Shown piece after piece: positions 470-39,701 of a DNA stretch of 64,000 nt. Origin of the DNA: Nitrospirota bacterium (GTDB taxonomy: Bacteria; Nitrospirota; Thermodesulfovibrionia; Thermodesulfovibrionales; SM23-35). Every line of letters starts with the position of its first letter. The first letter of the stretch is position 1. The position numbers and the translations under genes were made by a program. Below the pieces are notes generated by a model, which worked only from the letters and a program-made list of their open reading frames with translations, was not told the DNA's origin and did not search any database. The stretch lies in NCBI GenBank assembly GCA_040756135.1, contig JBFLZS010000007.1:3072-67071 (forward strand), read 5' to 3'.

Positions 470-502
470 TAGAGTAGGGAGTAAAGATTTACAGGTGACA
501 GA

Positions 503-772
503 ATGACGGAGAGGCGCAAGAAGGCGGCAGCCTTGAGGTATAGGCATGGAAAGGATTCTGCCCCAAAGGTTGTAGCAAAAGGAAGCGGAATCATAGCAGA
601 AAAGATTTTGAAGATAGCAAGGGAGCACAATATTCCAATAAAGGAAGATTTGCATCTTATAGAAGTCCTTTCAAATCTCGACCTTTATCAGGAAATACCC
701 CCTGAGCTTTACAGGGCGGTTGCAGAAATACTTGTCTTTGTTTATAAAATGACAAAGAAGGTGCAATATTAA
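503..772 (+). CDS. Stand-alone FlhB C-terminal-subdomain paralogue (YlqH / EscU-YscU-HrcU C-terminal family)
   Basis: 89 aa. Aligns by eye with the post-NPTH part of the FlhB in this window: [54 protein letters not shown] versus [54 protein letters not shown]. Confidence 0.85.
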
Positions 773-983
773 GAAGACCCTTTCCCCCCTCTCAAGAGGG
801 ACTGGTGCGTCATCAGTGTTTAATTCTCCGCCTGACTTCGTAAGACTTATATATCTTTATCTGTGGATAATGTTCCTTTATATATACTTCAACCTTTGGA
901 TGGATCATGTAACTTAGAAAAATTGGTAGAATAGGAGCTTTAATTTTATTGTCTGAGAAATTTGCATAACAGAAATAGACGAA

Positions 984-1385
984 CTATCTCAGAAGAATAC
1001 TTATGATTGCTCCAACCACGGAACCAATAAGGGCAGAAAGTGGAAGGATGTATTTGATGAGAAGTCTTCTTAATTCAGAAATCTCATTTCTAATTCCAGA
1101 AATCTCGTTTCTGATTCCAGAAATCTCGTTTCTGATTCCAGAAATCTCGTTTCTAATTCCAGAAATCTCATTTCTGAGATTCGTCTCAACTGTATCTATC
1201 TTTATATCTAATTGCTTAATCTCATTTCTGAGATTCGTCTCTATCTCCCTTGCAATCTCTTGCAGGTCAGCCTTTGTAGCAGCTCCACGCTGGATAGAAT
1301 CCTCGATAAAGGTGATTATGGCAGTTGCTTCTTCATCGCCGAGTTTTGGAGCAATCTTTTTATATACATCTACCGCAGTAAGCAT
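984..1385 (-). CDS. Coiled-coil, C-terminally membrane-anchored protein (DUF1640-like) with a five-fold RNEISGI heptad array
   Basis: 133 aa. Has an ATKADLQEI motif typical of DUF1640-like proteins, five RNEISGI heptads, and a hydrophobic C-terminus ILPLSALIGSVVGAIISILL. Confidence 0.7.
   Translation of the reverse strand: MLTAVDVYKKIAPKLGDEEATAIITFIEDSIQRGAATKADLQEIAREIETNLRNEIKQLDIKIDTVETNLRNEISGIRNEISGIRNEISGIRNEISGIRNEISELRRLLIKYILPLSALIGSVVGAIISILLR
1076..1187. repeat. 21-bp tandem repeat (about 5 units) inside the DUF1640-like gene
   Basis: Unit cagaaatctc[a/g]tttct[a/g]attc repeats head to tail from 1076. Each unit contains the small palindrome gaaatctcatttc. A related copy lies at 1217-1241. 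Confidence 0.9.
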
Positions 1386-1391
1386 GGTTTA

Positions 1392-1420
1392 TTTATATCA
1401 GATTAATTAAACAATGTCAA
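1392..1420 (-). promoter_or_regulatory. Sigma-70-type promoter candidate, TTGACA-17-TATAAA, for the DUF1640-like gene
   Basis: The minus strand reads TTGACA (1420-1415), a 17-nt spacer, then TATAAA (1397-1392). Only 6 nt separate the -10 box from the ATG at 1385, implying a leaderless or near-leaderless mRNA. Confidence 0.4.
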
Positions 1421-1464
1421 ATGTGGTGAAATTCTTTCTCTGTGGTTAATTTAAGTTTTTGTTC

Positions 1465-2517
1465 TTATACGGAGTTTATTATCTCCCCGGCCATTTCTTC
1501 TAACGGCAGGACCTTATCTGCTATCCCAGCTTCAATTACTGCCTTTGGCATTCCATAAATGATACATGTTTCTTCGTTTTGTGCCAATATCCTTCCTCCT
1601 GACTTTTTTAATGTAATTAATCCCTTGAGTCCGTCATTTCCCATACCGGTAAGTATCACTCCAAGCGCCCTTTCAGGGAAATATTCAGCTACAGATGCCA
1701 TGAGGGCATCCACAGACGGGATATAAATAAATTCCTCTTTATTCTCGGAAATCCTTACAATAGTCTCTATTCCCCTTATCCTTAAGGCCCTCATATTCCC
1801 TTTACCAGGCGCTATCAGAGCGACGCCTGGCTTTAAGGGCTCTCCTTCCTCGGCCTCTTTCACAGTAATCTGACTGAGTTGGTCGAGTCTTTCAGCAAAG
1901 GGCTTTGTGAAATTTGGAGGCATATGCTGAGCTATCAGGATAGGGACAGGAAAATCCTTCGGCAATTTGGGTATTATATCCTGAAGGGCCTTTGGCCCAC
2001 CTGTGGAAGTGCCAATTGAAACAACTGCTATCCTACGTTCACCTGTTGCCCTAATGGGCATACCCCTTGGCATTTCAAAGGTCTTATGGTCAGCAACGTT
2101 TCTAAGATGTCTTCTCAGGACGCCCTTTTTTGATATCTGTTTTACTTTATTAATTAATATCTCCTTTATCTTGACTATGTTTATTGAAAGATCAGATAGA
2201 TTTTTTGGTATAAAATCCACAGCTCCAAGATCAAGGGCATCAAGGGTAACCTTTGCGCCCTCTGAAGTCAAGGAACTGACCATTATTACTGGGAGTGGAT
2301 TCTTTTCCATGATCTGCTTTAAAGCAGTCAGGCCATCCATCTTTGGCATCTCAACGTCCATGGTCACAATATCAGGCTTTAGAATTGCAGCCTTCTCTAT
2401 TGCTTCAAGCCCATCCTTTGCAGTACCTACAATTTTGATCTCCGGATCGGATGAAAGCATTTTTGTGAGGGCATTCCTCATGAATGCAGAGTCATCAACA
2501 ATAAGTACCTTTACCAT
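1465..2517 (-). CDS. cheB: Chemotaxis response regulator protein-glutamate methylesterase
   Basis: N-terminal receiver (VLIVDDSAFMR, DVEMPKMDG) plus methylesterase domain with GTSTGGP, AQHMPP and GMGNDG motifs. Confidence 0.95.
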   Translation of the reverse strand: MVKVLIVDDSAFMRNALTKMLSSDPEIKIVGTAKDGLEAIEKAAILKPDIVTMDVEMPKMDGLTALKQIMEKNPLPVIMVSSLTSEGAKVTLDALDLGAVDFIPKNLSDLSINIVKIKEILINKVKQISKKGVLRRHLRNVADHKTFEMPRGMPIRATGERRIAVVSIGTSTGGPKALQDIIPKLPKDFPVPILIAQHMPPNFTKPFAERLDQLSQITVKEAEEGEPLKPGVALIAPGKGNMRALRIRGIETIVRISENKEEFIYIPSVDALMASVAEYFPERALGVILTGMGNDGLKGLITLKKSGGRILAQNEETCIIYGMPKAVIEAGIADKVLPLEEMAGEIINSV

Positions 2518-2518
2518 G

Positions 2519-3769
2519 TTAAAATCCGAAATCCTTCAAAAGGTCATCAACGTCAGCCTGCGATACTTTCTCGTGAATTAATACCTCCGTCTTGCCATGT
2601 TCAATCTTGACGCCGAAGGTTGTTACCAATCTCACGAGCTCTTCTTCTATATCTCCCACAAGTTTGATGACCCGTTTTATGGTCTGCCCTGTAATGTCCT
2701 GAAAGGATTGAGTCGTGAGTATTTCCGTCAGATCATCCTCGAGTGAATTCTTAAAATTTTTAAGATAATTTACTGAATCTGCCGGCTCTTTTATATTTCT
2801 TATATGTGAGGAAATTTCATCCATACTCAGTATATATTTTTCGACTATCCCTAACGTCTTGTTTGCGGCCTCTTCTGTCTGATCCATGACAAACTGGAGC
2901 CTGTCAATAGCGTTGGGCATTTCCATCATTGCCATATTTTTGAGTTTAGGGTCAATGGCCTCCTTAAAACTTTTAATGGAGTCGTGAAGCTTTCTTGTAA
3001 TCTTACCCACCTCCTTAAAGAGGTCGCCCTGTCCTTTTTTGATGATATGCTGAATGGCATCGTCCGCTTTTTCATAATCCTGGACTGATAAGGCATCAAT
3101 AAAGTTGACGATGTCGTCAAATATTAGGTATCTGGGGTCGTTAGAGTCTATTCCCCTTTGTTCAAAAAAAGTCTTCGTATCGTATAGCTCCGTTACCTTC
3201 ATTTCTCCAGCCATTGTCTGAACTGTCTTTTCCACTTCAACCTTATCACCCCTTTCCTGAATATCAACAACAAAATCCTCAAAAAGACTCATATCATCGA
3301 GGGGGAGGAGTTTTTTTGTATCAAGAAGGACAACAAGTCTGTCAGGGAGTTTAGCAACCCCCTTGACCTGCTCCACATGGCCGTTTAAGAAACTTTCAGG
3401 AGGTTCTATGGATGATTCTTCTATGTTGATGACGCCGGTGATTCCGTCAACAAAAATGCCGAAGGTTATTTTTCCTGCGGCAATGACGATCACTTTATTA
3501 CTTTCAAATCCCCCCTCGCTCCCCTTTGACCCCTCTTTGTCCCTCTTTAGTAAGGGGGGAATTAAAGGGGGGTTGGGAGGATTATTTAAATTTACGAGCT
3601 TCTTTAGATTGACTATAGGGATGATGTTTCCTCTGATGTTTGTGATTCCCTCTATATATGGTGGAGATTGGGGCATTCTGGTTATGGAAGGTAAATTAAT
3701 TATTTCACGAACCTTCAGTATAGGGATCGTGTATTCATTACTATTAAGATTAAATCCAATATATTGCAT
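2519..3769 (-). CDS. CheW-CheZ fusion protein (coupling domain plus CheY-P phosphatase domain)
   Basis: N-terminus is CheW-like (YIGFNLNSNEYTIPILKVREI..IEGITNIRGNIIPIVNL..VVLLDTKKLL). C-terminus is CheZ-like (SFQDITGQTIKRVI and terminal SQADVDDLLKDFGF). Start placed at the ATG at 3769, preceded by GGAGGA; the ORF track offers 3784. Confidence 0.85.
   Translation of the reverse strand: MQYIGFNLNSNEYTIPILKVREIINLPSITRMPQSPPYIEGITNIRGNIIPIVNLKKLVNLNNPPNPPLIPPLLKRDKEGSKGSEGGFESNKVIVIAAGKITFGIFVDGITGVINIEESSIEPPESFLNGHVEQVKGVAKLPDRLVVLLDTKKLLPLDDMSLFEDFVVDIQERGDKVEVEKTVQTMAGEMKVTELYDTKTFFEQRGIDSNDPRYLIFDDIVNFIDALSVQDYEKADDAIQHIIKKGQGDLFKEVGKITRKLHDSIKSFKEAIDPKLKNMAMMEMPNAIDRLQFVMDQTEEAANKTLGIVEKYILSMDEISSHIRNIKEPADSVNYLKNFKNSLEDDLTEILTTQSFQDITGQTIKRVIKLVGDIEEELVRLVTTFGVKIEHGKTEVLIHEKVSQADVDDLLKDFGF
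3506..3583. repeat. Family B-prime palindromic element inserted in frame in the CheW domain
   Basis: aaatcccccctcgctcccctttgacccctctttgtccctctttagtaaggggggaattaaaggggggttgggaggatt, translated as NNPPNPPLIPPLLKRDKEGSKGSEGGFES. Confidence 0.8.
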
Positions 3770-3784
3770 ATATCCTCCTTTCAA

Positions 3785-3940
3785 AATAGTGTCTGTCCAT
3801 AAACTAATGTGTACATTCCGTCAGTCTCCCTGCTTACAACCTGCAGGGACAGGCTTAAGCCGGAATCCAGTGTTTTCAACAGGTTCTGGATTCCTGCCTA
3901 CGCAGGAATGACAAAAAACCTGACTTTATGGACAGACTCT
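3785..3940. mobile_element. Family A MITE-like element, full length
   Basis: Outer termini aatagtgtctgtccataaac and ctttatggacagactct flank two hairpin modules ending in ggaatccag and ctggattcc..ggaatgac. Confidence 0.75.
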
Positions 3941-4047
3941 AAATAGTGTCTGTGCATAAACTCGATTAATTACCGTTTTCTGTCATTCCGCTTGTCCGGA
4001 ATCTTTCTTTAAGAAGGATTCCCGACGCGCTTCGCTTGCGGGAATGA
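3941..4047. repeat. Family A element, partial copy abutting the previous one
   Basis: Starts with aaatagtgtctgtgcataaac and contains gtcattccgcttgtccggaatc and gcgggaatgac hairpin modules. No right outer terminus. Confidence 0.6.
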
Positions 4048-4060
4048 CAAAAATGATCAA

Positions 4061-4162
4061 ATAATAACCAATAACCAATTTCCAATAACCAAACTTTTTT
4101 GGAATTTGGTGTTTGGTTATTGAGATTTATTTGGATTTTGGAATTTGGTCATTGGTTATTTT
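4061..4162. repeat. Short-period (about 7 nt) hairpin repeat, family D
   Basis: aataaccaataaccaatttccaataaccaaac, then a T run, then ggaatttggtgtttggttattgag, followed by further ttggattttggaatttggtcattggttatt. Confidence 0.7.
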
Positions 4163-4173
4163 GTTATTTCTAT

Positions 4174-5844
4174 TCATTTCCTTACTCCGAGCACATTCCT
4201 CGATACCCCTGCAAGGTCGAGTATAAGAACAACCTTCCCATCACCCGTGATGGTGGCGCCAAGCACACAGGATGAATCTGTATCTATTCCCTCTACGGCC
4301 TTTATAACAATTTCCTCCTGACCCAAAAGCTCATCCACTGCAACGCAAAACTTTTTTCCCCCGATAGAGATGACAACGACGTATCTGTGCTGATAATCAG
4401 TCAGTCTGCCATTTCCAAGAATATCGGATAGCTCAAATATTGGGAGGACATTCCCCCTGATGACCAGAACCTTCTGGCCTACCACATCAGTAATATCTTT
4501 TTTTGAGACTTTAAGTGTTTCTACAACTGATGTAAGTGGTATAGCATAATGAGAGCTACCTGCACGCACCATAAGGGCCTGAATTATTGCCAGGGTAAGG
4601 GGTATGCTTATCCTGAATGTGGTTCCAATATCTTTTTTGGTTGTTATCTCGGCATAACCGTTGAGTTTTGATATATTTGTTTTCACAACATCCATCCCAA
4701 CCCCGCGGCCACTAAGTTCGGTAGCCACCTCAGCAGTGGAAAATCCCGGTAAGAATATGAGATTTGTTGCCGCCTCATCCGTCATGTTCATGGCTTCATC
4801 TTCTGTTATCAATCCCTTTTCACTGGCCTTTCTTTTAACCCGTTCCACATCTATTCCCCTGCCGTCGTCAGATACCTCAATTACAATCTGATTGCCTTTC
4901 TGGTAAGCGCTTATAGAAATGATGCCCTTTTCAGGTTTTCCTTTTGAACGCCTCTCTTGCATTGGCTCGATAGCATGATCAACGGCATTTCTTATAATGT
5001 GCACAAGGGGGTCTCCTATATGTTCAATCACGGACTTATCAACTTCTGTATCTTCACCGGATATCCTGAGGTCCACATCCTTCCCCAGGTTGCCGGATAT
5101 ATCTCTTACGAGGCGGGGAAACTTGCTGAAGACCTTCTGTATGGGCTGCATACGTATCCTCATAACAGCAAGCTGCATATCAGAGGTAACGAGGTCGAGG
5201 AAAGAAACAGTTTCAAAGAGGCTTTCGATGTAATGGTCTCCGGAATATTTCATTTCGAGATAATTCATGATATTTAGAAGTCTGTTTCTTATTAAAACAA
5301 CTTCACCTGTCAGGTCCATAACCTTATCAATTCTGTTTATGTCAACCCTGAGGGTTTGACCTGGTGACGAGTGACGAGTGACGAGTGAGGAGTCTTTTTC
5401 ACTTCTATCTTCTGATTCTTTTTTGACTTCTGGTTCCTGGTTCCTGACTTCTGACTCCTGAGATTTGAGTGCTATATCAAGTTCTTTCAAAAGAGGCGAA
5501 ATGTCTTCTTCTTTTCCATCCTTTAGTTTTATATGCTGAAGTAAGAGCCGGAGCAAATCTACGCTCTTTAGAATTACATCCATCAATTTCTTTGTGACTG
5601 AAATTTTGCCGTCTCTAAGTTTCTTCAGAATATTCTCTGCGCCATGCGCAACATCAACTATGGACTGGAAACCGAGGAAACCTGCAGCCCCCTTAACGGT
5701 ATGCATACTTCTGAATATCTCGTTTAAAATATCCTTATCATGACCCTTTGACTCGATCTCAATAAAAAGAGGATCTATCTTATCCAGAGACTCTTCCGCG
5801 TCTGTGATAAATTCTGATATTATCTCTTCCATCTCGTCAGGCAT
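4174..5844 (-). CDS. cheA: Chemotaxis histidine kinase CheA (P1, linker, P3-P4-P5; no obvious P2)
   Basis: Hpt motif SMHTVKGAAGFLGF; HATPase motifs HIIRNAVDHAIE, DDGRGID, GRGVGMDVV; C-terminal CheW-like domain. Confidence 0.95.
   Translation of the reverse strand: MPDEMEEIISEFITDAEESLDKIDPLFIEIESKGHDKDILNEIFRSMHTVKGAAGFLGFQSIVDVAHGAENILKKLRDGKISVTKKLMDVILKSVDLLRLLLQHIKLKDGKEEDISPLLKELDIALKSQESEVRNQEPEVKKESEDRSEKDSSLVTRHSSPGQTLRVDINRIDKVMDLTGEVVLIRNRLLNIMNYLEMKYSGDHYIESLFETVSFLDLVTSDMQLAVMRIRMQPIQKVFSKFPRLVRDISGNLGKDVDLRISGEDTEVDKSVIEHIGDPLVHIIRNAVDHAIEPMQERRSKGKPEKGIISISAYQKGNQIVIEVSDDGRGIDVERVKRKASEKGLITEDEAMNMTDEAATNLIFLPGFSTAEVATELSGRGVGMDVVKTNISKLNGYAEITTKKDIGTTFRISIPLTLAIIQALMVRAGSSHYAIPLTSVVETLKVSKKDITDVVGQKVLVIRGNVLPIFELSDILGNGRLTDYQHRYVVVISIGGKKFCVAVDELLGQEEIVIKAVEGIDTDSSCVLGATITGDGKVVLILDLAGVSRNVLGVRK
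5363..5462. repeat. Heptamer-type repeat DNA forming the CheA P1-P3 linker
   Basis: gtgacgagtgacgagtgacgagtgagg ... ttctggttcctggttcctgacttctgactcctga, translated as SQESEVRNQEPEVKKESEDRSEKDSSLVTRHSS. Confidence 0.65.
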
Positions 5845-5860
5845 ATCTCACTCCTTTATA

Positions 5861-5923
5861 GGGTCAAGGGTCATGGGGCAAGGGTCAAGTCAAAGACTTG
5901 ATAAGCCCTTGCCCCTTGACCCT
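5861..5923. repeat. Family D heptamer hairpin between cheA and cheY
   Basis: gggtcaagggtcatggggcaagggtcaag tcaaaga cttgataagcccttgccccttgaccct; the arms are largely complementary. Confidence 0.7.
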
Positions 5924-6314
5924 ATTTGTTCAGTTTCTCGAATATCTTATCCATCTTTTCCTTTAAAACCTCTGCTGTAAAGGGCTTCACGACATAATTA
6001 CTGACCCCTGCCTTTATAGCCACAATGACCTTTTCCTTCTCTGCCTCGGCTGTAACCATAAGGAATGGCATATCCTTTAATTCAGGGTCGCTTCGAACTT
6101 TTTTCAGTAGCTCAAGGCCGTCCATGTTCGGCATATTCCAATCAGCTACAACAAACCCAACACCCCCATTTTTTAATTTTGTATATGCCTGAGCGCCATC
6201 CTCTGCTTCTTCGAAGTTTTCATATCCCAGTTGTTTGTATATATTTCTTATAATCCTTCTCATTGTTGGAAAATCATCAACAATGAGGATCTTCATTTTG
6301 TAGTCAGGCATCAT
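5922..6314 (-). CDS. cheY: Chemotaxis response regulator CheY
   Basis: Single receiver domain with [22 protein letters not shown] and VVKPF. The start may be the second ATG (6311), given GGAGG spacing. Confidence 0.9.
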
Positions 6315-6693
6315 GGCCTCCTTTTGTGTATATATCCTTCAAGAGGTTTCTTATTTTTTCTATAACCACATCGGCAGTTACCGGTTTCACAACATAGCCA
6401 TTGGCTCCAGCCTTAAATGCCCTTTCTTTCTCCTCAGGGTCTGCTTCTGTTGAGACCATAAGGACAGGAATATGAACCCAGTTAGGATCGGACCTGATGG
6501 TCTTTACGAACTCAATGCCATCCATGTAAGGCATGTTAATGTCTGACAGAATCAGATTGATGTCCTCTGTTGCAAGCTTTTCTATTGCATCAAGGCCGTT
6601 TTCAGCAAATATAATATCAAAGCCTTTTGTCTTCAAATAGAGGCCGAGAAGTTTTCTCGTTGTCTGGCAATCATCAACTATCATAATCTTCAT
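6304..6693 (-). CDS. Second CheY-like single-domain response regulator
   Basis: [27 protein letters not shown]. Overlaps the cheY start. Confidence 0.85.
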
Positions 6694-6710
6694 GGCATCT
6701 CCTTACTAAA

Positions 6711-6790
6711 GAAAGGGGCAAGGGCAGGTAGCAAAGGGGCAAGTTTTTTGACCCATGACCCCTGACCCATGACCCATGACTCTTGACCCT
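6711..6790. repeat. Family D heptamer repeat between cheR and the second cheY
   Basis: gaaaggggcaagggcaggtagcaaaggggcaag, then ttttt, then six tandem heptamers: tgaccca tgacccc tgaccca tgaccca tgactct tgaccct. Confidence 0.8.
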
Positions 6791-6791
6791 T

Positions 6792-7610
6792 TCATACTTT
6801 TTGGTATACCACTACCCTGTTAAAAATGACAGGCCTGAATGCCCTTGTTATATTATGAAGGCTTTCAGACGTGCCTATAAATAAAAATCCCCTGGTTTTC
6901 AGACTGCCGTATAAAAAAGATACAACCTTCTGTTTGGCCCTGTCATCGAAATAAATGAGGACATTGCGGCAAAATATAACATCAACATCACGCATAAACC
7001 TCATCTTTTTTTCATCAACAAGATTTATATTCATGAATTTGACAGAATTCTTTATAGAGTGTTCAAGCTCATAGGCGTGCCCGTTTACTCTAAAATATTT
7101 TTTGAGAAAGGGTTCTGGCACATTTCTTACGGAGTATGAGCTGTAAACAGCATTCACTGCAGATTTTAAAACTCCGGCACTTATATCTGATGCAAATACA
7201 TCCATACGGACAGTAGACATCCTTTCTTTATGCATCATCACAATGGTGTATGGTTCCTCTCCTGTGGAGCAGGCAGCAGACCATATCTTCAAATTATCAG
7301 TACCTCTGGTCTTAGTAACCTCCGGGATAATAAAATTAAAAAATACATCCAATTGCTGTTGTTCCCTGAAAAAGAAGGTTTCATTCGTTGTTACAGCATC
7401 GAAAAGCTTTGCAAGCTCATCTCCATTTGCGCTATACTTTAAAAGATATAGATAATCCTCAAAGCTGTTAATATTTTTCTCCTGAAGCCTTTTAATAAGT
7501 CTATTTTCAAGAAAATACTTTTTTATGTCGGGTATAAAGATACCGCTTGTTTCGTATATAAAATCCCTCAATTGTTTGAAAGTCGAATCTTGAAGTGGAA
7601 TATTCAGCAT
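6792..7610 (-). CDS. cheR: Chemotaxis protein methyltransferase
   Basis: TNETFFFRE, IWSAACSTGEEPYT and IFCRNVLIYFD motifs. Confidence 0.93.
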   Translation of the reverse strand: MLNIPLQDSTFKQLRDFIYETSGIFIPDIKKYFLENRLIKRLQEKNINSFEDYLYLLKYSANGDELAKLFDAVTTNETFFFREQQQLDVFFNFIIPEVTKTRGTDNLKIWSAACSTGEEPYTIVMMHKERMSTVRMDVFASDISAGVLKSAVNAVYSSYSVRNVPEPFLKKYFRVNGHAYELEHSIKNSVKFMNINLVDEKKMRFMRDVDVIFCRNVLIYFDDRAKQKVVSFLYGSLKTRGFLFIGTSESLHNITRAFRPVIFNRVVVYQKV

Positions 7611-7668
7611 TTTCTATCCCATTACAACTATTGACTCCTGTAATAAAGGTCCTATGCTCGTTTTGTCT

Positions 7669-7765
7669 GTCATTCCGCACTTGATGCGGAATCCAGTCTT
7701 TATGCCTCTCTCTGGATTGCCCGATCAAGCCTGCCCTCGACTGCGATCGGGGGTCGGGCAATGAC
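7669..7765. repeat. Family A element (inner twin-hairpin part)
   Basis: gtcattccgcacttgatgcggaatccag ... ctggattgcccgatcaag ... gggcaatgac. Confidence 0.7.
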
Positions 7766-7780
7766 GAAATAGGACATTAC

Positions 7781-9685
7781 TTATGTCTCTTTCAATAATT
7801 TTTCTGTTCCCACTTCGGCATTTTCAGAATGCCGGATGTTGTCAATTACCTGATGAACCATTTCCCTTATTCTACTGTCACTATGATTAAGCAAGGGGTT
7901 CAGTATACTAAGTGCCTTCTTGCCGCCGAGTCTGGCTACTGCATCGATAGTGGAAAGGACAACAGGGACCTCTTTGTCATAAAGCATAGGTTTAAGGGCA
8001 TTAATCATATCCTGCCTCAATGAATTTCCTAATGCCTTAACAGCGGAGAGCCTGACCCACATATCTTTATCATTAAGTATCGATTTGATCTCGTCGTGGC
8101 AGCAATTTAATTCACCCATTGCCTTCACAGCAGCCCTTCTTACTTCAGGCTCATCGTCATGCATGGCTTTAGCAAGCCTTTTATATGCCCTCTCATCATG
8201 TATTTTCCCGAGCCCTGCTATTGCAGATACCTTAATCTTAAGATCTTTATCTTCCGAGAAGGTAAGGAGTATATTGATGTCCTTTGCATATTTCCCGATG
8301 ACCTCTTTCACATAGCCACTAAGTTCATCGAGGTGTAAAAATAAGGCCGCAGGATCAATATTGAGAAGTGCATTAACAGCTTCCTCTATAACATCCCGGT
8401 ATCTCTCTATATAAAGAAGTTTCAGGAGGGACTGAACAGATGCCTTATCACCTATCTTTCCCAGAGCAGAGACAGTCGCCTTCCTTACATGTCCATCGTA
8501 ATCATAAATGGCATCTAAAAGCGTCTGCGTTGTATCCTCGTCGTTTATTTCACCGATGGCATTTATGGCTGCCCTTCTAACATCCCTGAATTTACTATCA
8601 AGTAGTCTTATAAGGTTTGGAACGGCTTTCTTACACCTTAAGTCCCCAAGCAGCTCGATAGCTATCTGCTTTCCCCTGTACTTAATGGTGGTATTATTCA
8701 GGATATCAATCAGTGAATTGCTGCATCCGAAGTTCTTTAGTGCATCTTTGATGATCTGAAGCTTCTCCTCGGCATCTGGTTCAGATGGATCAAGAGAACC
8801 AGCAATGTCAATTATGGTATAAATTGCCTTTTCTTCCCTTAAACCGACAATGCCTTTAAGTATCATAAGCCTCTCATACCAGTCACCATTTCGAAACATA
8901 TCTATGAGTACATCAGAGATCTCGGGCATTGCCGGAGTAATACCAATCTGGACAAGACTCTTTATGGTTGCTGTTTTTTCAAAACCTTCTGATTTTTGCA
9001 GATGCCTGAAGAGGGCATTACTTGAATGTAGCGAAGCTATCCTTCCAAGTGTATCTATGGCTGCATATCTAATAATATCGTATGGGCTATTGAGAAGGGA
9101 TACTATAGGTTCTATAGAGGACTCGTCCTTTAATAGTGCAAGGGATTCGAGGGCTGAGAAACAGACCCATTCCTCGTCTCTTAAGGCACCTATCAACTGG
9201 GGCAATGCATCTTTATAACGGAGAATGCCAATTGCCTTTGCAGCAGATGCCCTCACATTCGGATTGGGGTCACTCACAAGAATTCGAGCTATTTCCTCGG
9301 GGTAATTACACTCTTTAATTTCGCAGATAAGGTCAATGGCAAATTTGCGTATATCCTCATCTTTATCTTTTAAAAGGAAATAGAGTAGAGGAATTGAAGC
9401 TGACCCTATTTCTTTCAATATGATCATTGCTGTATTCCTGAGAAGAGGCTCATCCCTGAGAAGAGGTATAGCCATGTAAGCAGTGACCTCACCACCTATG
9501 GAGATTAAAGAACGCATTGCTGCATCCTGGACACCCGGGTTGTCATCCTTTAATGCCTTAATCAGGGGATATATAGCCCTTTCGTCACCGGAGGATAAAT
9601 CCTCAGCGGAGGAACGCCTTTTTGATGAATCGTTATGGGCGAGCCCCTTTAACAGCTTTGATAGTTTTTTAGTTCCTATGGTCAT
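7781..9685 (-). CDS. HEAT-repeat (PBS-lyase-type) protein, first gene of the chemotaxis operon
   Basis: 634 aa. Many recurring units of the form D.d..VR..A..ALG.ig, for example DDNPGVQDAAMRSL, DPNPNVRASAAKAIG, DDEPEVRRAAVKAMG. Confidence 0.8.
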   Translation of the reverse strand: MTIGTKKLSKLLKGLAHNDSSKRRSSAEDLSSGDERAIYPLIKALKDDNPGVQDAAMRSLISIGGEVTAYMAIPLLRDEPLLRNTAMIILKEIGSASIPLLYFLLKDKDEDIRKFAIDLICEIKECNYPEEIARILVSDPNPNVRASAAKAIGILRYKDALPQLIGALRDEEWVCFSALESLALLKDESSIEPIVSLLNSPYDIIRYAAIDTLGRIASLHSSNALFRHLQKSEGFEKTATIKSLVQIGITPAMPEISDVLIDMFRNGDWYERLMILKGIVGLREEKAIYTIIDIAGSLDPSEPDAEEKLQIIKDALKNFGCSNSLIDILNNTTIKYRGKQIAIELLGDLRCKKAVPNLIRLLDSKFRDVRRAAINAIGEINDEDTTQTLLDAIYDYDGHVRKATVSALGKIGDKASVQSLLKLLYIERYRDVIEEAVNALLNIDPAALFLHLDELSGYVKEVIGKYAKDINILLTFSEDKDLKIKVSAIAGLGKIHDERAYKRLAKAMHDDEPEVRRAAVKAMGELNCCHDEIKSILNDKDMWVRLSAVKALGNSLRQDMINALKPMLYDKEVPVVLSTIDAVARLGGKKALSILNPLLNHSDSRIREMVHQVIDNIRHSENAEVGTEKLLKET

Positions 9686-9701
9686 ACCGATCCTTTTTTT
9701 C

Positions 9702-9728
9702 TTATCGGAATTTCAGGGAAATTCTTTA
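9702..9728 (-). promoter_or_regulatory. Sigma-28 (FliA) promoter match upstream of the chemotaxis operon
   Basis: The minus strand reads TAAA gaatttccctgaaat TCCGATAA. This is the consensus TAAA-N15-GCCGATAA with one mismatch, ending 16 nt upstream of the ATG at 9685. Confidence 0.55.
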
Positions 9729-9789
9729 ACTATACCTAAACGTTGCATAAAATTATTAAGAGTTTCATAATTGAATAGACATTATTTAG

Positions 9790-9866
9790 AAAATCTCCCC
9801 TCGCCCCTCTTTGCCAAAGAGGGGTATGATTCCTCCCTTTGGCAAAGGGAGGTTAGGAGGGATTTT
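9790..9866. repeat. Family B double-hairpin element (core)
   Basis: aaaatctcccctcgcccctctttgccaaagaggggtatgattcctccctttggcaaagggaggttaggagggatttt. Flanked by imperfect outer inverted repeats (cataattgaatagacatt ... atgtgcatactataatgag). Confidence 0.85.
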
Positions 9867-9913
9867 ATGATTATTATGTGCATACTATAATGAGACGATT
9901 AATATCTAAAATC

Positions 9914-9982
9914 GTCATTGCCCGACTTGATCGGGCAATCCAGAGAAAGGTTCTGGATTATCCGGTCAAGCCGGATAATGAC
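9914..9982. repeat. Family A element (inner twin hairpins only)
   Basis: gtcattgcccgacttgatcgggcaatccag agaaaggtt ctggattatccggtcaagccggataatgac. Confidence 0.75.
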
Positions 9983-10000
9983 AAAAAAGAGTTCAATAAT

Positions 10001-10738: not shown

Positions 10739-10764
10739 CTCATAATTGAATAGACATTAATCAA

Positions 10765-10841
10765 AAAATCTCCCCTCACCCCTCTTTGCCAAAGAGGGGT
10801 ATGATTCCTCCCTTTGGCAAAGGGAGGTTAGGAGGGATTTT
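10765..10841. repeat. Family B double-hairpin element (core)
   Basis: Near-identical to 9790-9866 by eye. Occupies the flhG-fliA spacer. Confidence 0.85.
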
Positions 10842-10895
10842 CTGATAATTATGTGCATACTATTTCGAGACTGCTAATAGATTGAGCTCCTCCGA

Positions 10896-11744
10896 TTATG
10901 CCTGTTTCATTTTCTGTAACGAACTGGCAGATAAGAGATTGCCTAAGAAAAACTGCAAGGTCCCTTTCACTTTGCTGTTTGAGTCAGAGAACTTTGATGC
11001 GATCTCAGTAAACTTCTGAGACGCGATACTGTTAGGATAGATCTCAACAATGGCCCTCTGCTCCTTTACTGCCCTCTGTATAGAACTGTCGAAGGGGATA
11101 CATCCTATGTAATCAAGAGATATGTTTAAAAATTTCTCGGCAACTATTGAGAGTCTTCTGAAAACCTCAAATCCTTCCTCTGAACTCTTGACAAAATTCA
11201 CGAGGACACGGAATTCCTTTTCCTGATATCTGGTAAAAAGAACCTTGATCAGGGCATAAGCATCTGTGATTGCTGTGGGTTCAGGAGATGTTACTACCAC
11301 TATCTCCTGCGCAGCGATACAGAAAAAAGCTACATTCTCAGATATGCCTGCAGCGGTGTCTATGATAAGAAAATCGATGTCGTCATCATATAAATCAAAG
11401 CCCTCCAGCAATCTCAGCCTCTGAAACTCATCGAGAGATGTTAATTCCTGAACGCCTGAACTGGCTGGCAGTATCTTTATCCCGCGTGGACCTTCAATAA
11501 CAATATCCTTTAATGTCATCTTTCCGTCTAACACATGCTTGATGTTGTAACGCGGTGTTAATTGAAATAAAATATCTATATTGCTTAATCCAAGGTCAGC
11601 GTCTAAAATCATTACATTCTTGCCGCTCTTTCTTATTTCCAGGGCAATGTTTGCTGCGATGTTGGTCTTTCCTACACCACCCTTTCCACTTGTAATAGCT
11701 ATCGTCCTTACGCACTTTGTCTTCTGCCGGTTCTCGATCAACAT
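10896..11744 (-). CDS. flhG: MinD/ParA-type ATPase FlhG (YlxH)
   Basis: Deviant Walker A IAITSGKGGVGKT. Positioned directly after flhF, with a 7-nt overlap. Confidence 0.88.
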   Translation of the reverse strand: MLIENRQKTKCVRTIAITSGKGGVGKTNIAANIALEIRKSGKNVMILDADLGLSNIDILFQLTPRYNIKHVLDGKMTLKDIVIEGPRGIKILPASSGVQELTSLDEFQRLRLLEGFDLYDDDIDFLIIDTAAGISENVAFFCIAAQEIVVVTSPEPTAITDAYALIKVLFTRYQEKEFRVLVNFVKSSEEGFEVFRRLSIVAEKFLNISLDYIGCIPFDSSIQRAVKEQRAIVEIYPNSIASQKFTEIASKFSDSNSKVKGTLQFFLGNLLSASSLQKMKQA

Positions 11745-12868
11745 GTATAGCTCCTTTTTCTTAAAATGAGACTGGTGAGTTTATCCGGTGTAATAAATTC
11801 AATGTCACCGGGAACCTTCTGGCCGGTTGTTACAAATGCAACCGGTTTCTGATATATGAGGAGCAGGTTATAAAGAGTTCCATACCGTACAGCTTCATCA
11901 ACTTTTGTAAAGGCAATATAGTCAACAGGCAACATTCTATAAAACCTGTATGCATCTATCATGAATTCATCATCAGAACTCGCACTCATGAGGAGATGAA
12001 GCTCTACGGGAACCTTTATCTGACATGCCGACAGTATCTCATTAATATATGACTCATCTCGCGGGTTTCTTCCGGTGGTATCAATAAAAATAATATCCCT
12101 GCTTTCCGAGTATCGTATGAGACACTCTTCAAGTTCTTTTCCTTGAGAAACGATCGAAAGCGGTATGCCCATAATCCTCGAATAGATCCGCACCTGTTCA
12201 ACAGCTCCTATCCTGTAAGTGTCAAGGTTGACCATCGCTGCTTTTTTGCCCTCTTGAATTGCAAGGGCAGAGAGTTTCGCAATGGTCGTTGTTTTGCCCA
12301 CGCCTGTTGGACCGATGAGCATAACAGCCTTCTTGTTAGTATTTATTGGCTTCACCTTTATATCATTCGATAGTAATGAAGGAATCTGGCTCAGATCTTT
12401 AGCTTTTTCACACAGACGGAGGGCGAATTCTTCACGTATCGATCTTTTTATGAGAAAATGCAGTATCATTCTTTTTTCAGGAGGTAATGAGAGGTTATAG
12501 CCGGTATTCTTCATGTTTTCTATAATCCCCTTAAGGCTGCCAATCTCATTTTTAATATCATCAACCAGTGTAGAAGAAAGCAGTTTAGAGCTCGAAGTTC
12601 GGAATTCGGAGTTTGCAATCCCCCCTTGCCCTCCTTTTTCAAATCCCCCCTTACCCCCCTTTTCCAAATCCCCCCTTACCCCCCTTTTTAAAGGGGGGAT
12701 GGGGGGATTATATCCTGAGTCATAATCAACCGCTGCAGTGACCTCAACAAAAGGTCTGATACCTCTTTTTTCTTCCGATGATAGTATTATTGCATCCTCA
12801 CTGAGTTCTTTTTTGATTAGGTCAAGGGCATCAGCAAAATTCCTTGCTTTGAATTTCTTAATCTTCAT
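11738..12868 (-). CDS. flhF: SRP-type GTPase FlhF
   Basis: NG-domain motifs LIGPTGVGKTTTIAKL, DTTGRN and FTKVDE. The N-terminal B domain carries a repeat insertion. Confidence 0.9.
   Translation of the reverse strand: MKIKKFKARNFADALDLIKKELSEDAIILSSEEKRGIRPFVEVTAAVDYDSGYNPPIPPLKRGVRGDLEKGGKGGFEKGGQGGIANSEFRTSSSKLLSSTLVDDIKNEIGSLKGIIENMKNTGYNLSLPPEKRMILHFLIKRSIREEFALRLCEKAKDLSQIPSLLSNDIKVKPINTNKKAVMLIGPTGVGKTTTIAKLSALAIQEGKKAAMVNLDTYRIGAVEQVRIYSRIMGIPLSIVSQGKELEECLIRYSESRDIIFIDTTGRNPRDESYINEILSACQIKVPVELHLLMSASSDDEFMIDAYRFYRMLPVDYIAFTKVDEAVRYGTLYNLLLIYQKPVAFVTTGQKVPGDIEFITPDKLTSLILRKRSYTC
12617..12709. repeat. Family B-prime palindromic element (left arm triplicated) in frame in the FlhF B domain
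   Basis: Three copies of aatcccccctt[g/a]cccc..tttt.c, then aaaggggggatggggggatt. Translated as NPPIPPLKRGVRGDLEKGGKGGFEKGGQGGIA. Confidence 0.85.
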
Positions 12869-14891
12869 ATTTCAAAACCCCTGTTGTATAAAGTTTTACA
12901 GATGGAGATATTTCGGCATTTGAGAGAATGACAACTGATGGGAGGAATCTCTCTGTAATCTTCCTGAGCAATCTTCGAGCATTTACTGAGCAAAGGATAA
13001 TTGGCTGAACCCCCTTAAACCTGTTTTCCTTCAGAGCGGTTTCGATTGCCCGTGTCATCTTGTTGACGATCTCGGGATTTATTGCGCCTCCAGCCTCAAG
13101 AGAATGTGAAAGCTCTTTTTCAAATTGTGGATCAAAAATCATCACATAGATGCTTCCGTCAGGCGTCATGTATTGTTTGGTTATATATCGTGAAAGTGCT
13201 TGTCTCACAAACTCTGTGAGTGTTTCGACATCTTTCACTGACGGGGCGTAATCGAGTAGAGTCTCAAGGATGGTAATCAGGTCATTGATCGGTACCCTCT
13301 CTTTCAAAAGATTCTGGAGCACTCTCTGAACACTGCCTAATGTAAGATGAGAAGGGATAAGCTCATCTATAATCTTCGGATAGTTCTTTGAAACATTATC
13401 CAGCAGGCTCTGGACTTCAGTCCTTGTAAGGAGCTCCGCAGCGTGTGCCTTTATTAGTTCTGTGAGGTGTGTGGCTATTACTGTTGCAGGGTCAACTACC
13501 ATGTAACCACTTGTTTGAGCCTTTTCTATGTCCCTCTCGCTGATCCAGAAGGCCGGGAGTCCGAATGCTGGCTCCTTTGTAGGTATCCCCTCTAATTTTT
13601 CTGCTTCAACTGAGGAGACAGCGAGGTAGTAACCCATCATAACCTCACCCTTTGCAACCTCAATGCCCCTTATAAGAAGGCTGTATTCGTGAGGCCTGAG
13701 CTGGAGGTTGTCCTTTATATGTATTGAAGGCACAACAAAGCCAAGTTCTGAAGCAAGTTGTTTCCTCATGGCCTTTATCTTATTAAGGAGATTTGACTTT
13801 TCTCCTTCTACAAGAGGAATCAGACCATATCCGATTTCGAGCGTGAGTGGTTCGATCTCCATGAATGTTTCGATGGCAGGTTCCCGCATTACTTGTTCGA
13901 CTTTTTCTTCTTTTTCTTCTATACCCTTGGCTGTGGAAATGATATACGCTAAAGCGCCTGAAGCAGCAGAAAGGAGCAAGAATGGAATATGAGGAAGTCC
14001 TGGTACAACTCCAAGAACAACCATAATACCTGAGGCAGTGCCAAGGGTCTTCGGATTTAATAATAACTGTTGAGTTATGTCTTTACTGAGATCTCTCTCA
14101 GTTCCGGCACGGCTTACAACTATGCCCGCTGCGGTGGATATAAGCAAAGCCGGGATCTGTGAAACTAAACCATCACCTATGGTAAGTATTGTATATGTTT
14201 TCGCTGCGTCTTCAATGGACATGCCTTTCTGTATTAAACCTATGATCAAACCACCTATGATGTTTATGCCGGTTATGATTAATCCTGCAATAGCGTCACC
14301 TCTCACAAATTTACTGGCACCGTCCATAGCGCCATAGAAATCAGCCTCTTGGGCAATGAGGGCTCTCCTTCTCCTTGCCTCTGATTCATCGATGAGCCCT
14401 GAATTAAGGTCCGCATCTATAGCCATCTGTTTGCCAGGCATACCATCGAGTGTAAAACGTGCAGCCACCTCTGCTATCCTTCCAGACCCTTTTGTGATGA
14501 CGACAAAATTGACGACTACCAATATCAGAAAGACAATGAAACCAACAGCATAGTTGCCACCAACAACAAAGCTTCCAAACGATTTTATCACCTGTCCAGC
14601 TGCTTCTATCCCTTCACTGCCCCTCAGTAAAATCAACCTTGTAGCTGCAATATTCAAAGCAAGCCTGTAGAGTGTTGTGAGGAGAAGGATGGAAGGGAAT
14701 ACAGAAAAATCTAATGGTTTCTTAATATAAATGCCAGTTATGATTATAACTATTGAAATCGATATTGAAAAGGAGAGGAGGATATCCAGTATGAATGGTG
14801 GAACAGGGAGGATCATAACACCTAAAATGGCCACAACACTTATTGCGATGGTAAAATCCTGCCTCTGTTGAATCAGGTTGAGGAATCTCAT
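12858..14891 (-). CDS. flhA: Flagellar export apparatus protein FlhA
   Basis: FHIPEP-family motifs (RFTLDGMPGKQMAIDADL), eight-TM-type N-terminus, large cytoplasmic C-domain. Confidence 0.97.
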   Translation of the reverse strand: MRFLNLIQQRQDFTIAISVVAILGVMILPVPPFILDILLSFSISISIVIIITGIYIKKPLDFSVFPSILLLTTLYRLALNIAATRLILLRGSEGIEAAGQVIKSFGSFVVGGNYAVGFIVFLILVVVNFVVITKGSGRIAEVAARFTLDGMPGKQMAIDADLNSGLIDESEARRRRALIAQEADFYGAMDGASKFVRGDAIAGLIITGINIIGGLIIGLIQKGMSIEDAAKTYTILTIGDGLVSQIPALLISTAAGIVVSRAGTERDLSKDITQQLLLNPKTLGTASGIMVVLGVVPGLPHIPFLLLSAASGALAYIISTAKGIEEKEEKVEQVMREPAIETFMEIEPLTLEIGYGLIPLVEGEKSNLLNKIKAMRKQLASELGFVVPSIHIKDNLQLRPHEYSLLIRGIEVAKGEVMMGYYLAVSSVEAEKLEGIPTKEPAFGLPAFWISERDIEKAQTSGYMVVDPATVIATHLTELIKAHAAELLTRTEVQSLLDNVSKNYPKIIDELIPSHLTLGSVQRVLQNLLKERVPINDLITILETLLDYAPSVKDVETLTEFVRQALSRYITKQYMTPDGSIYVMIFDPQFEKELSHSLEAGGAINPEIVNKMTRAIETALKENRFKGVQPIILCSVNARRLLRKITERFLPSVVILSNAEISPSVKLYTTGVLKYED

Positions 14892-16677: not shown

Positions 16678-16698
16678 AATCTAACTAAATAAATTCCA

Positions 16699-16838
16699 CC
16701 TAAATTGAGCGATTTATTATCTCAATAATGCCACTGAGACAGGCGAGACGCCTGTCCTACGGGTTTGAGGTTTCACCTTTCAAGTAGGACAGCCGTCTCG
16801 GCTGTCCTTGATTTGTCAAAAGAATCGCTCAATTTAGG
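16699..16838. mobile_element. Family F MITE-like element in the fliQ-fliR spacer
   Basis: Perfect 16-bp TIRs cctaaattgagcgatt (16699-16714) and aatcgctcaatttagg (16823-16838). Internal hairpins gacaggcg-aga-cgcctgtc and ggacagccg-tct-cggctgtcc. Confidence 0.85.
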
Positions 16839-16876
16839 TTCCAATAATCAAGCACCAATGATCAAATAACAGTTCA

Positions 16877-24852: not shown

Positions 24853-25401
24853 TCATTCGGTAGGAAATTTTTTCTCGATCCTTGTGAGGCCCTCGGTAAT
24901 AGATGCAACTTTCTTTGCATCCATATACGCCAGTACCGCTCCTGCTTTTTTGCTCTTCATTCCACTAATGATCTCTATTGCTGTACGTTCATCAAGGGCG
25001 GCGAGTTTCGAAGCTGCTTCTTCAGGCGGCATGCCTTCATAAATCTTGACAACATATTCAAGTCTCTCAGCCTTGATCTTCTCGATCTGTTTCAGTTTTA
25101 TATCAAGTTCGCTTAAAAGCTTTGTATATTTCTCTATCTTCTCTTCGATGTCTTTTTTAAGGGCATTCAGCTTCTTGTCTTCTTTCTCGAGCTGCTCCTC
25201 CTTGATTTTTAATTCCTTCTGTTTTTTCTCAATCAACGAAACAACATCATCCTGGGCTGATGTAGAAACAGAAAACAGGGCACAGAGAAAAGAACACAGA
25301 ACACAGCCAATAAAAAATACATTTATTGAGGCTCTTGCAAAAGTCATGAAAGCCGCTGTTTTTGTCATTTCGAGTGAAACGAGAAATCTTTTAATCAACA
25401 T
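24853..25401 (-). CDS. YlxF/MotE-like flagellar protein (N-terminal anchor, coiled coil, MgtE-N-like domain)
   Basis: Positioned between fliJ and fliK as in B. subtilis ylxF. K/E-rich coiled coil, then YEGMPPEEAASKLAALDERTAIEIISGMKSKKAGAVLAYMD. The start is uncertain (25401, 25368 or 25347). Confidence 0.65.
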   Translation of the reverse strand: MLIKRFLVSLEMTKTAAFMTFARASINVFFIGCVLCSFLCALFSVSTSAQDDVVSLIEKKQKELKIKEEQLEKEDKKLNALKKDIEEKIEKYTKLLSELDIKLKQIEKIKAERLEYVVKIYEGMPPEEAASKLAALDERTAIEIISGMKSKKAGAVLAYMDAKKVASITEGLTRIEKKFPTE

Positions 25402-30365: not shown

Positions 30366-30677
30366 TTATACCTGCATCCTCATGATCTCTTCATAGGCGC
30401 TCAACAGCTTATTCCTCACCTCAACCATCAAATTAAAAGACATGTCTGCTTTCTCCATAGCTATAATCGCCTGGGTTATATCACCGCCTGACGCCAATTC
30501 TTTGACAGCTTTTTCAGCATCGTTCTGCACCAGATAAATCTTACCAACGGCCTCATGCAATATATCGTCAAATCCCTGAGCTGAAGCCTTGCTGTCAGCC
30601 TTAACCTGTAATCCCCCCTCGCCCCCCTTTAGTAAAGGGGGGGTGGTGGGATTATTCGCAATCCTCATATCAGACAT
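30366..30677 (-). CDS. fliE: Flagellar hook-basal body protein FliE
   Basis: C-terminal AIIAMEKADMSFNLMVEVRNKLLSAYEEIMRMQV. Positioned upstream of fliF. Confidence 0.85.
   Translation of the reverse strand: MSDMRIANNPTTPPLLKGGEGGLQVKADSKASAQGFDDILHEAVGKIYLVQNDAEKAVKELASGGDITQAIIAMEKADMSFNLMVEVRNKLLSAYEEIMRMQV
30610..30653. repeat. Family B-prime 44-bp palindrome in frame near the FliE N-terminus
   Basis: aatcccccctcgcccccctttagtaaagggggggtggtgggatt, translated as NNPTTPPLLKGGEGGLQ. Confidence 0.85.
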
Positions 30678-39561: not shown

Positions 39562-39605
39562 AACATTCATGTCTCAAAGAGACTCAAATGATGATAAAAA
39601 TTTGT

Positions 39606-39650
39606 AATCCCCCACTCCCCCCCTTTAGAAAAGGGGGGGAGTGGGGGATT
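39606..39650. repeat. Family B-prime 45-bp palindrome, non-coding copy in the motA-motB spacer
   Basis: aatcccccactcccccctttagaaaagggggggagtgggggatt. Confidence 0.85.
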
Positions 39651-39701
39651 TGAGGTATTTTCAGGTGAAATTTTCGGACTGAATGTTGAGAGGTATGCAT
39701 A

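Follow-up and report, generated by a model that had tools for sequence, protein, structure and literature searches.

How does the gene of a conserved flagellar regulator come to carry, in its reading frame, several arms of one palindrome, and what has become of them since? The question is raised by flhF in a 64,000-nucleotide stretch of the Nitrospirota bacterium assembly GCA_040756135.1, hereafter the window (contig C7:3072-67071 of a 3.51-Mb genome of 172 contigs and 40% G+C), where an array of palindrome arms at window positions 12617-12709 is translated as part of FlhF. The answer that we consider probable is that a dispersed palindrome came to lie in a permissive linker of FlhF, that one of its arms was later duplicated in the lineage of the window, and that it is carried there as a neutral passenger.

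On the plus strand the half-sites AATCCCCCCTTGCCCTCCTTTTTCA (12617-12641), AATCCCCCCTTACCCCCCTTTTCCA (12642-12666) and AATCCCCCCTTACCCCCCTTTTT (12667-12689) follow each other head to tail, and the opposite arm AAAGGGGGGATGGGGGGATT (12690-12709) adjoins the third of them, a layout that matches the original prediction letter for letter. A repeat search found three direct copies spaced 25 nt apart, each of which forms with the single right arm a pair of 20-nt inverted arms of 80-85% complementarity, and Tandem Repeats Finder (TRF) described the array as a period of 25 with 2.9 copies and 91% matches. Across the window there are 14 occurrences of the half-site pattern where shuffled sequence would give 0.13, and none of 100 shuffles has as many. 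The minus-strand open reading frame (ORF) 11738..12868 translates the array in frame as NPPIPPLKRGVRGDLEKGGKGGFEKGGQGGIA, upstream of the NG domain as had been foreseen, the Pfam SRP54 GTPase domain lying at residues 180-369. On this coding strand one C-arm is followed by three G-arms, U1, U2 and U3; the triplicated arm is thus the G-rich one. The gene and the parts of the array are as follows.

11738..12868, minus strand: flhF, 376 codons, from the ORF list and from profile and structure matches
12617..12709, minus strand: the whole array, a palindromic G6/C6 element with additional arms (93 nt = 31 codons; residues 54-84), translated as NPPIPPL-K-RGVRGDL-E-KGGKGGF-E-KGGQGGI
12690..12709, minus strand: C-arm AATCCCCCCATCCCCCCTTT, encoding NPPIPPL (the "right arm" of the original prediction)
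12667..12689, minus strand: G-arm U1, AAAAAGGGGGGTAAGGGGGGATT, 23 nt with the loop one base short, pairing with the C-arm and read in a shifted frame as KRGVRGD
12642..12666, minus strand: G-arm U2, TGGAAAAGGGGGGTAAGGGGGGATT, 24/25 identical to U1 at a 25-nt period
12617..12641, minus strand: G-arm U3, TGAAAAAGGAGGGCAAGGGGGGATT, diverged, and common to the closest relative

The lengths of these arms add up to 20 + 23 + 25 + 25 = 93 nt; U2 reads EKGGKGG and U3 reads EKGGQGG, while U1 is out of phase with both. The C-arm and U1 would form a very stable RNA hairpin (minimum free energy of -43.6 kcal/mol for a 117-nt stretch), but shuffles of this sequence of G and C runs fold almost equally well (z = -1.7), so that no functional conclusion can be drawn from the hairpin. 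Rfam gave no family match to the array, only chance hairpins below threshold (22 bits or less, where the gathering scores are 71-77).

The array belongs to a palindrome family with other copies in the window, as had been supposed from the window alone, and this family is spread over the whole genome. The consensus of this family is AATCCCCCC-nn(n)-CCCCCCTTT-nnn-AAAGGGGGG-nn(n)-GGGGGGATT, mostly 44-45 nt, and there are 467 half-site clusters genome-wide, among them 166 full palindromes. The flhF element has the termini AATCCCCCC and GGGGGGATT, each of its arms contains two C6 (or G6) blocks, its loop is of the TTT-nnn-AAA type, and it is read in frame as a Pro-rich, then Gly-rich peptide (NPPxPP..KGGxGG); its innermost pair, 12667-12709, fits the consensus except for the loop, which is one base short. 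The exact pattern is present in 97 copies in this genome and in 1-74 copies in 14 of 40 related genomes, and the reversed pattern, used as a control, had no match in the same genomes. In 101 of 166 cases (61%) the frame around a full copy stays open for 30 codons or more in both directions, compared with 70% for random 44-mers, which indicates that the family is not extragenic. Three quarters of the in-ORF copies (75/100) are read as NPPxPP(F/L)xKGGxGG(F/L/I). As a palindrome, the element reads alike in both orientations, Pro-rich and then Gly-rich, and two of its three reading phases lack a stop codon. Copies of 44 nt and of 45 nt both occur in frame within ORFs; copies of 43 or 46 nt are rarer inside ORFs than outside them (5/100 vs 16/61, the latter counting copies of 43-46 nt among 65 outside copies in all), a depletion that fits selection on the reading frame. 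A or T stands at positions -1 and +1 in 96% of the copies, which could be a 1-nt duplication. Set beside a miniature inverted-repeat transposable element, the whole element is one inverted repeat, and an empty site and a parent insertion sequence were not identified.

Extra arms are found at other places too. The genome holds 23 multi-arm clusters, with a perfect in-situ arm duplication at C47:15673, and the two-G-arm layout with the same ATT-TGAAA junction is present at other loci of this genome and in 8 of 41 related genomes. Arm multiplication is thus a recurrent property of the G6/C6 family. Composite forms of 67 nt and 100 nt recur at 5-7 loci each, and the flhF copy is the only one in the genome with three arms.

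The age of the extra arms can be read from a comparison of strains, which the original prediction had proposed for copy number of the half-site and which did reveal a difference. The closest relative found, contig L029, is 94-95% identical to the window in DNA; it encodes FlhF P0001 (92% protein identity, 368 residues, flhA upstream) and carries NPPTPPLEKGGKEGFEKGGHGGIA at the same position of flhF with identical flanks. The two junctions, TCAGGATAY/AATCC and GGGATT/GCAAACTCCGAATTCCGAAC (the stroke marking the border of the element), are identical in both. The L029 element consists of the C-arm, U1' and U2' (44 + 25 = 69 nt, 23 codons) and thus has two G-arms where the window has three, and the window element exceeds it by exactly 24 nt (93 vs 69 nt):

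12665..12688, minus strand: 24 nt present in the window and absent from L029, placed according to a MAFFT alignment

In L029 there is a single unit where the window has the pair U1/U2, which forms a tandem repeat of 25-nt period with one mismatch (24/25 identical). A single-step tandem duplication of 24 nt was considered and rejected, as the best 24-nt period has 6 mismatches vs 1 at 25 nt. Judging from these sequences, U1 and U2 would be the two copies of a recent duplication and U3 an older arm; since U3 is diverged and common to L029, just one of the two additional arms is of recent origin. The original prediction that the arm was multiplied by slippage or recombination after insertion is thus supported by the U1/U2 duplication and its absence from L029, with the refinement that the other additional arm is older. 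Exact-pattern scans of metagenome contigs with the junction of flhF and element and with the conserved flhF flank gave no match, L029 included; the collection evidently lacks these samples.

We propose the following course of events. A copy of the dispersed, presumably mobile, 44-45 nt hairpin element would have inserted into the FlhF B domain, in the unstructured linker that separates the folded N-terminal module from the N domain; as a palindrome that is Pro-rich and Gly-rich either way and stop-free in two phases, it was simply translated. The insertion would be older than the split of the window genome and L029 (94-95% DNA identity), and at that split the element would already have had one extra G-arm, that is 69 nt or 23 codons. 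In the window lineage the 25-nt unit of half a loop and a G-arm, GAAAAGGGGGGTAAGGGGGGATTTG, would then have been duplicated in tandem, probably by replication slippage or by unequal recombination between the two G-arms already present, and one loop base would have been lost (TTTAGAAAA to TTTAAAAA). The gain of 25 nt and the loss of one loop base leave a net gain of 24 nt and keep the frame; the arm enclosed by these two changes is translated out of phase by one, giving RGVRGD in place of KGGKGG. The base may have been lost in the same imprecise event or later, by way of a transient frame-shifted allele. That the window gained a unit, and L029 did not lose one, is suggested by the near identity of U1 and U2, and slippage or unequal exchange between existing G-arms is the source that we infer for it.

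The difference between two and three arms could also have arisen if multi-arm arrays insert ready-made as composites and were acquired in separate insertions or by recombinational replacement. Such a history has some precedent here: the composites of 67 nt and 100 nt spread as units over 5-7 loci each, the two-G-arm form is seen in 8 genomes, and linker alleles are shuffled between lineages (see below). It is nevertheless very improbable, given that both junctions, the diverged third arm and the heptamer array downstream are common to the window and L029, that the adjacent and 24/25 identical U1 and U2 carry the signature of a local tandem duplication, and that no other three-arm copy exists in the genome. 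Still less credit is due to the view that the third arm is an artefact of assembling a short tandem repeat in a metagenome-assembled genome (MAG). The genome is indeed in 172 contigs; however, the 25-nt units are much shorter than reads or assembly k-mers, the array is exactly in frame in an otherwise intact and conserved gene, an independent contig from another sample has the same multi-arm design at this site, and a 78-kb contig is on record that encodes the identical protein.

The gene in which this happened is flhF. Its product reaches 192.6 bits with the FlhF model NCBIfam TIGR03499 (cut-off 174.15), it has a G domain of the signal recognition particle (SRP) type, and the solved FlhF NG structure 2px0 matches its residues 169-364. 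The gene stands in the order flhA-flhF-flhG-fliA, with FlhA encoded upstream and the MinD-like FlhG and then FliA downstream, and it overlaps the stop of flhA (12858..14891) and the start of flhG (10896..11744). Its relatives come from Thermodesulfovibrionia/Nitrospirota MAGs, and the G motifs are invariant in the alignment of FlhF homologues.

Ahead of the NG domain lies the B domain, which has been called "widely disordered" in FlhF (PMC10910532). An AlphaFold model made from a 78-sequence alignment (mean predicted local distance difference test score, pLDDT, of 83.9) divides it into a folded module and a linker:

12719..12868, minus strand: conserved folded N-terminal B-domain module, residues 1-50, strand-helix-strand-strand, pLDDT 90-97, with many invariant columns in the 78-sequence alignment
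12578..12616, minus strand: rest of the linker, a decayed heptanucleotide array of AACTCCG-like units, read as ANSEFRTSSSKLL

Residues 57-94 have a pLDDT below 50 and no secondary structure, and the confident helix of the N domain begins at residue 95. The expectation that a disordered B domain tolerates the array is thus borne out for the linker, whereas the first 50 residues are conserved and confidently folded. Between the conserved Y49 and E108 the window protein has 58 residues, compared with 33-128 (median 56) in the 78 homologues, among which this stretch shows no sequence conservation. The heptamer array is also shared with L029, where TRF finds AACTCCG x 4.6 copies at the same place of the linker. 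Codons that differ between the window and L029 are distributed unevenly along the gene: the N-terminal module has 6 synonymous and 1 non-synonymous, the remaining gene beyond the module 27 and 11 (33 vs 12 with the module), and the element together with the heptamer-derived part 2 synonymous and 7 non-synonymous. Constraint is relaxed in this part of the linker. The original prediction had named conservation in distant FlhF orthologues as the observation that would speak against an insertion; among 123 FlhF sequences (identity of at least ~52%) the peptide is carried by the window protein and P0001, and by none of the 121 others.

It could still be argued that selection maintains the Gly/Pro-rich repeat peptide as a functional part of FlhF, such as a tuned flexible spacer or a binding motif, and that the number of arms is adaptive, for the linker with the element has 58 residues where the family median is 56, and the restored frame after the duplication implies that the gene is under selection to stay intact. 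We regard this as improbable: the same peptide is found in ~100 unrelated ORFs, one arm is out of phase (RGVRGD), the segment has changed with 7 non-synonymous against 2 synonymous differences, the peptide is missing from the 121 other homologues, and a strain 99% identical to L029 has an entirely unrelated linker in its place. Most likely the insertion is instead carried along neutrally in a linker that permits it; its peptide would have no function of its own and would be tolerated because only length and reading frame matter there.

This replacement is seen in L030 (protein P0002), which is 99.0-99.5% identical to L029 over ~800 nt on each side of the linker. Its linker (L030:6151-6244) is 94 nt long vs 130 nt in L029, is unrelated to the latter and is made up of four TCWGCAG heptamers and, after them, a perfect 34-nt palindrome, CATGGAGGGGCGTATTGCAATACGCCCCTCCATG. 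L045 and L046 (gene 1501-2571), 97% identical to L029/L030, have a variant of this allele B, in which the palindrome has changed symmetrically on both arms (GGAGGGG/CCCCTCC vs GCAGGGG/CCCCTGC). In the window the corresponding block is the following.

12565..12718, minus strand: block without homology to the flhF linker of L030, L045 and L046 (allele B), flanks 94-95% identical, limits from blastn breakpoints

The NG domain of L044 (gene 1501-2439) is 100% identical to that of L045, and its gene has an in-frame deletion of 132 nt, which runs from a GCAATA in the N-terminal module to a GCAATA at the centre of the palindrome (microhomology) and removes residues 26-69, half of the conserved N-terminal module included. 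The window flhF is 95% identical to all of L029, L030, L044, L045 and L046, and the linker alleles are discordant with the similarity of the rest of the gene, which suggests recombination or a long-lived polymorphism. That allele B might be the window-type allele A in inverted orientation was also considered; this was rejected, the palindromes being of different families and the heptamer units mismatched in either orientation. All six linker alleles recovered are in frame. The FlhF linker evolves like a spacer, with the reading frame as its sole constraint; in this clade it would be almost wholly repeat DNA that is swapped wholesale between near-identical strains.

Such variation could have a use, and two further explanations start from it. 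In the first, the linker is a maintained hypervariable cassette whose unrelated, repeat-built alleles are kept and exchanged, and reversible changes of length or frame tune or switch the placement of flagella; the alleles in question would be the G6/C6 element with two or three arms, the heptamers with another palindrome, and the in-frame deletion. This is quite improbable, the cassette and its list of alleles alike; if true, it would be a repeat-driven contingency in a free-living Nitrospirota bacterium, with 25-nt, 7-nt and homopolymer repeats that are prone to slippage. In the second, flhF is a contingency locus in which slippage in the G6/C6/A5 runs and in the 25-nt units toggles the frame and causes reversible variation in flagellation. 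A difference in repeat number between close strains at the orthologous site (2 vs 3 arms), as contingency loci have, is found here, the compensating +25 and -1 changes 24 nt apart suggest that frame-breaking events occur and are repaired, and the in-frame deletion allele of L044 is in the population. On the other side, runs of 5-6 bases are short for phase variation at a high rate, and there is no out-of-frame variant among the six alleles seen, so that we find this toggling extremely unlikely.

Several points weigh against this preferred history. The three-arm state rests on one assembly, and no empty site is known that would fix the borders of the insertion or a target-site duplication. The direction of change, a gain or a loss, is read solely from the near identity of U1 and U2, which gene conversion between arms could mimic, and the path of +25 and -1 requires that a single imprecise event made both changes or that flhF was transiently frame-shifted. 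As the linker alleles are discordant with the similarity of the NG domains, the element may have entered one of the lineages by recombination. Finally, neutrality is itself inferred, and selection on length could explain why the linker, with its 58 residues, comes so close to the family median of 56.

A possible candidate for the factor that mobilises these elements is DUF559. DUF559 is found at six loci of the genome (7 matches), three of which are directly flanked by half-sites under a strict definition, and the others by related G/C hairpins. Small genes for this Vsr-like nuclease at C75:2869-3288, C29:4-313 and C98:9448-9682 (loci L031, L034 and L036) are directly bracketed by G/C hairpin half-sites of this family and of sister families, and the copies on C26, C30 and C52 by different G/C hairpins. 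A RAYT/Y1 transposase as partner enzyme was rejected for want of adjacency to half-sites: none of the six Y1_Tnp (PF01797) matches in the genome has a half-site within 1.5 kb. A literature search returned nothing relevant on this palindrome family in Nitrospirae or on a link between DUF559 and palindromes.

Among known systems, the Rickettsia palindromic elements (RPE; Ogata et al. 2000), of ~100-150 bp as summarised in PMC10969869, come close: they too are dispersed palindromes that lie in frame in many unrelated genes, add an extra peptide and are tolerated at permissive places of proteins. In-frame insertion in many ORFs with a conserved peptide is likewise found here (101/166 in long frames, 75/100 in one phase). 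The size of 44-45 nt and the Nitrospirota host differ from RPE; in sequence the G6/C6-block element is presumably unrelated to them. RPE hosts are AT-rich obligate intracellular alphaproteobacteria, whereas the present element, with ~61% of its full copies intragenic, is found in a free-living member of the Thermodesulfovibrionia. We know of no report that RPE copies grow by arm duplication.

Repetitive extragenic palindromic (REP) sequences and REPINs, which occur with RAYT genes encoding a Y1 transposase, are extragenic, have a GTAG/CGTC end tag and cluster with the RAYT gene (PMC3733652). The G6/C6 elements resemble them as short (20-45 nt) hairpin-forming repeats of high copy number that are patchy among related genomes; unlike them they end in AATCCCCCC / GGGGGGATT with no GTAG/CGTC tag, are intragenic about as often as random sequence, and flank none of the six Y1_Tnp genes. 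A REP of the GTAG type is, however, what the palindrome of allele B, unrelated to the G6/C6 family, resembles, as its relatives elsewhere in the genome of the window start with GTAG. With coding variable-number tandem repeats (VNTRs) the locus shares a unit number that differs between close relatives (2 vs 3) at an orthologous in-frame site; it differs in that the repeat is the arm of a mobile palindrome and not a native protein repeat, and in that each gain or loss needs a compensating 1-nt change, since the unit of 25 nt is not a multiple of three. As to the protein, the FlhF of Bacillus and Shewanella (PDB 2px0/2px3, 8r9r; PMC10910532) likewise has an SRP-type NG GTPase after a B domain, which is largely disordered and absent from the crystal structures; in the window protein, by contrast, residues 1-50 show strong conservation and a predicted fold, and the disordered part is composed of repeat DNA. 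The case thus combines an RPE-like intragenic palindrome with repeat variation of the slippage type and is no new kind of system.

Related repeats were met at other places of the window. In the ORF 30366..30677 (minus strand) a canonical 44-nt copy at 30610-30653 supplies, in frame, residues 9-23 of FliE (NNPTTPPLLKGGEGGL); a start codon with a good GGAGGG ribosome-binding site precedes it, and the Pfam FliE match (residues 25-103) comes after it. A CheW-CheZ fusion (ORF 2519..3784, minus strand) contains in frame, at 3507-3590, a G/C element with several arms that belongs to this family or to a sister family. The element forms residues 65-93 inside the CheW domain, with the reading NNPPNPPLIPPLLKRDKEGSKGSEGGF, and the 134 positions of the Pfam CheW profile are matched over 154 residues. 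A longer repeat, GACTCAAAGGATGATGAAAATTTGT-[palindrome]-TGAGGTATTTTCAGGTGAAA (39581-39670), encloses the 45-nt copy at 39606-39650 and occurs at no fewer than 10 loci of the genome, and many other copies of the palindrome precede TTCAGGTGA, which resembles a ribosome-binding site. A second, larger composite hairpin element, AATCTCCCCTCACCCCTCTTTGCCAAAGAGGGG...CCTCCCTTTGGCAAAGGGAGGTTAGGAGGGATTTT, of ~110 nt per copy, is found at 202, 9792, 10767, 36382, 38149 and 38390, fused to a conserved leader that reads AATGTCTATTCAATTATGAG on the minus strand; the copy at 10767 directly abuts the start codon of fliA (10738), and the other copies share the leader.

Heptanucleotide arrays have the commonest tandem-repeat period of the genome (430 arrays at a TRF score of 30 or more). 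In the window they are present at 4063-6789, and some lie within ORFs (5364-5461 in ORF 4174..5844, 25266-25306 in ORF 24853..25401); they are part of the FlhF linker in L029, L030 and L045 and in the more distant relatives L005-L007. In the flagellar operon, the spacers 10742-10896 and 16697-16870 cannot be aligned with L030:7913-8139 and L030:2065-2173, while the genes are 93-95% identical, and each spacer is filled with different repeats, such as two GGACAG...CTGTCC hairpins at ~16750-16810 in the window. At L030:8886-8918 (94% DNA identity) fliA is followed after 32 nt by a small FlhB-C-like gene (window 485-771), and window 772-9993 is ~9.2 kb of extra DNA relative to L030, including cheW-cheZ and several other ORFs.

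The flhF site gives a dated before-and-after view of an in-frame palindromic element as it changes inside a gene: after what appears to be the duplication of an arm, the frame is restored by a change of one base, and part of the protein continues to be read in another phase at no visible cost. For annotation, such segments should not be mistaken for domains or for frameshift errors. The linker of a conserved flagellar regulator can be almost entirely selfish or slippage-prone repeat DNA, and it can be swapped as a whole between strains otherwise 99% identical, which makes the locus useful for understanding the origin of disordered linkers and for work on an RPE-like family that is still undescribed.

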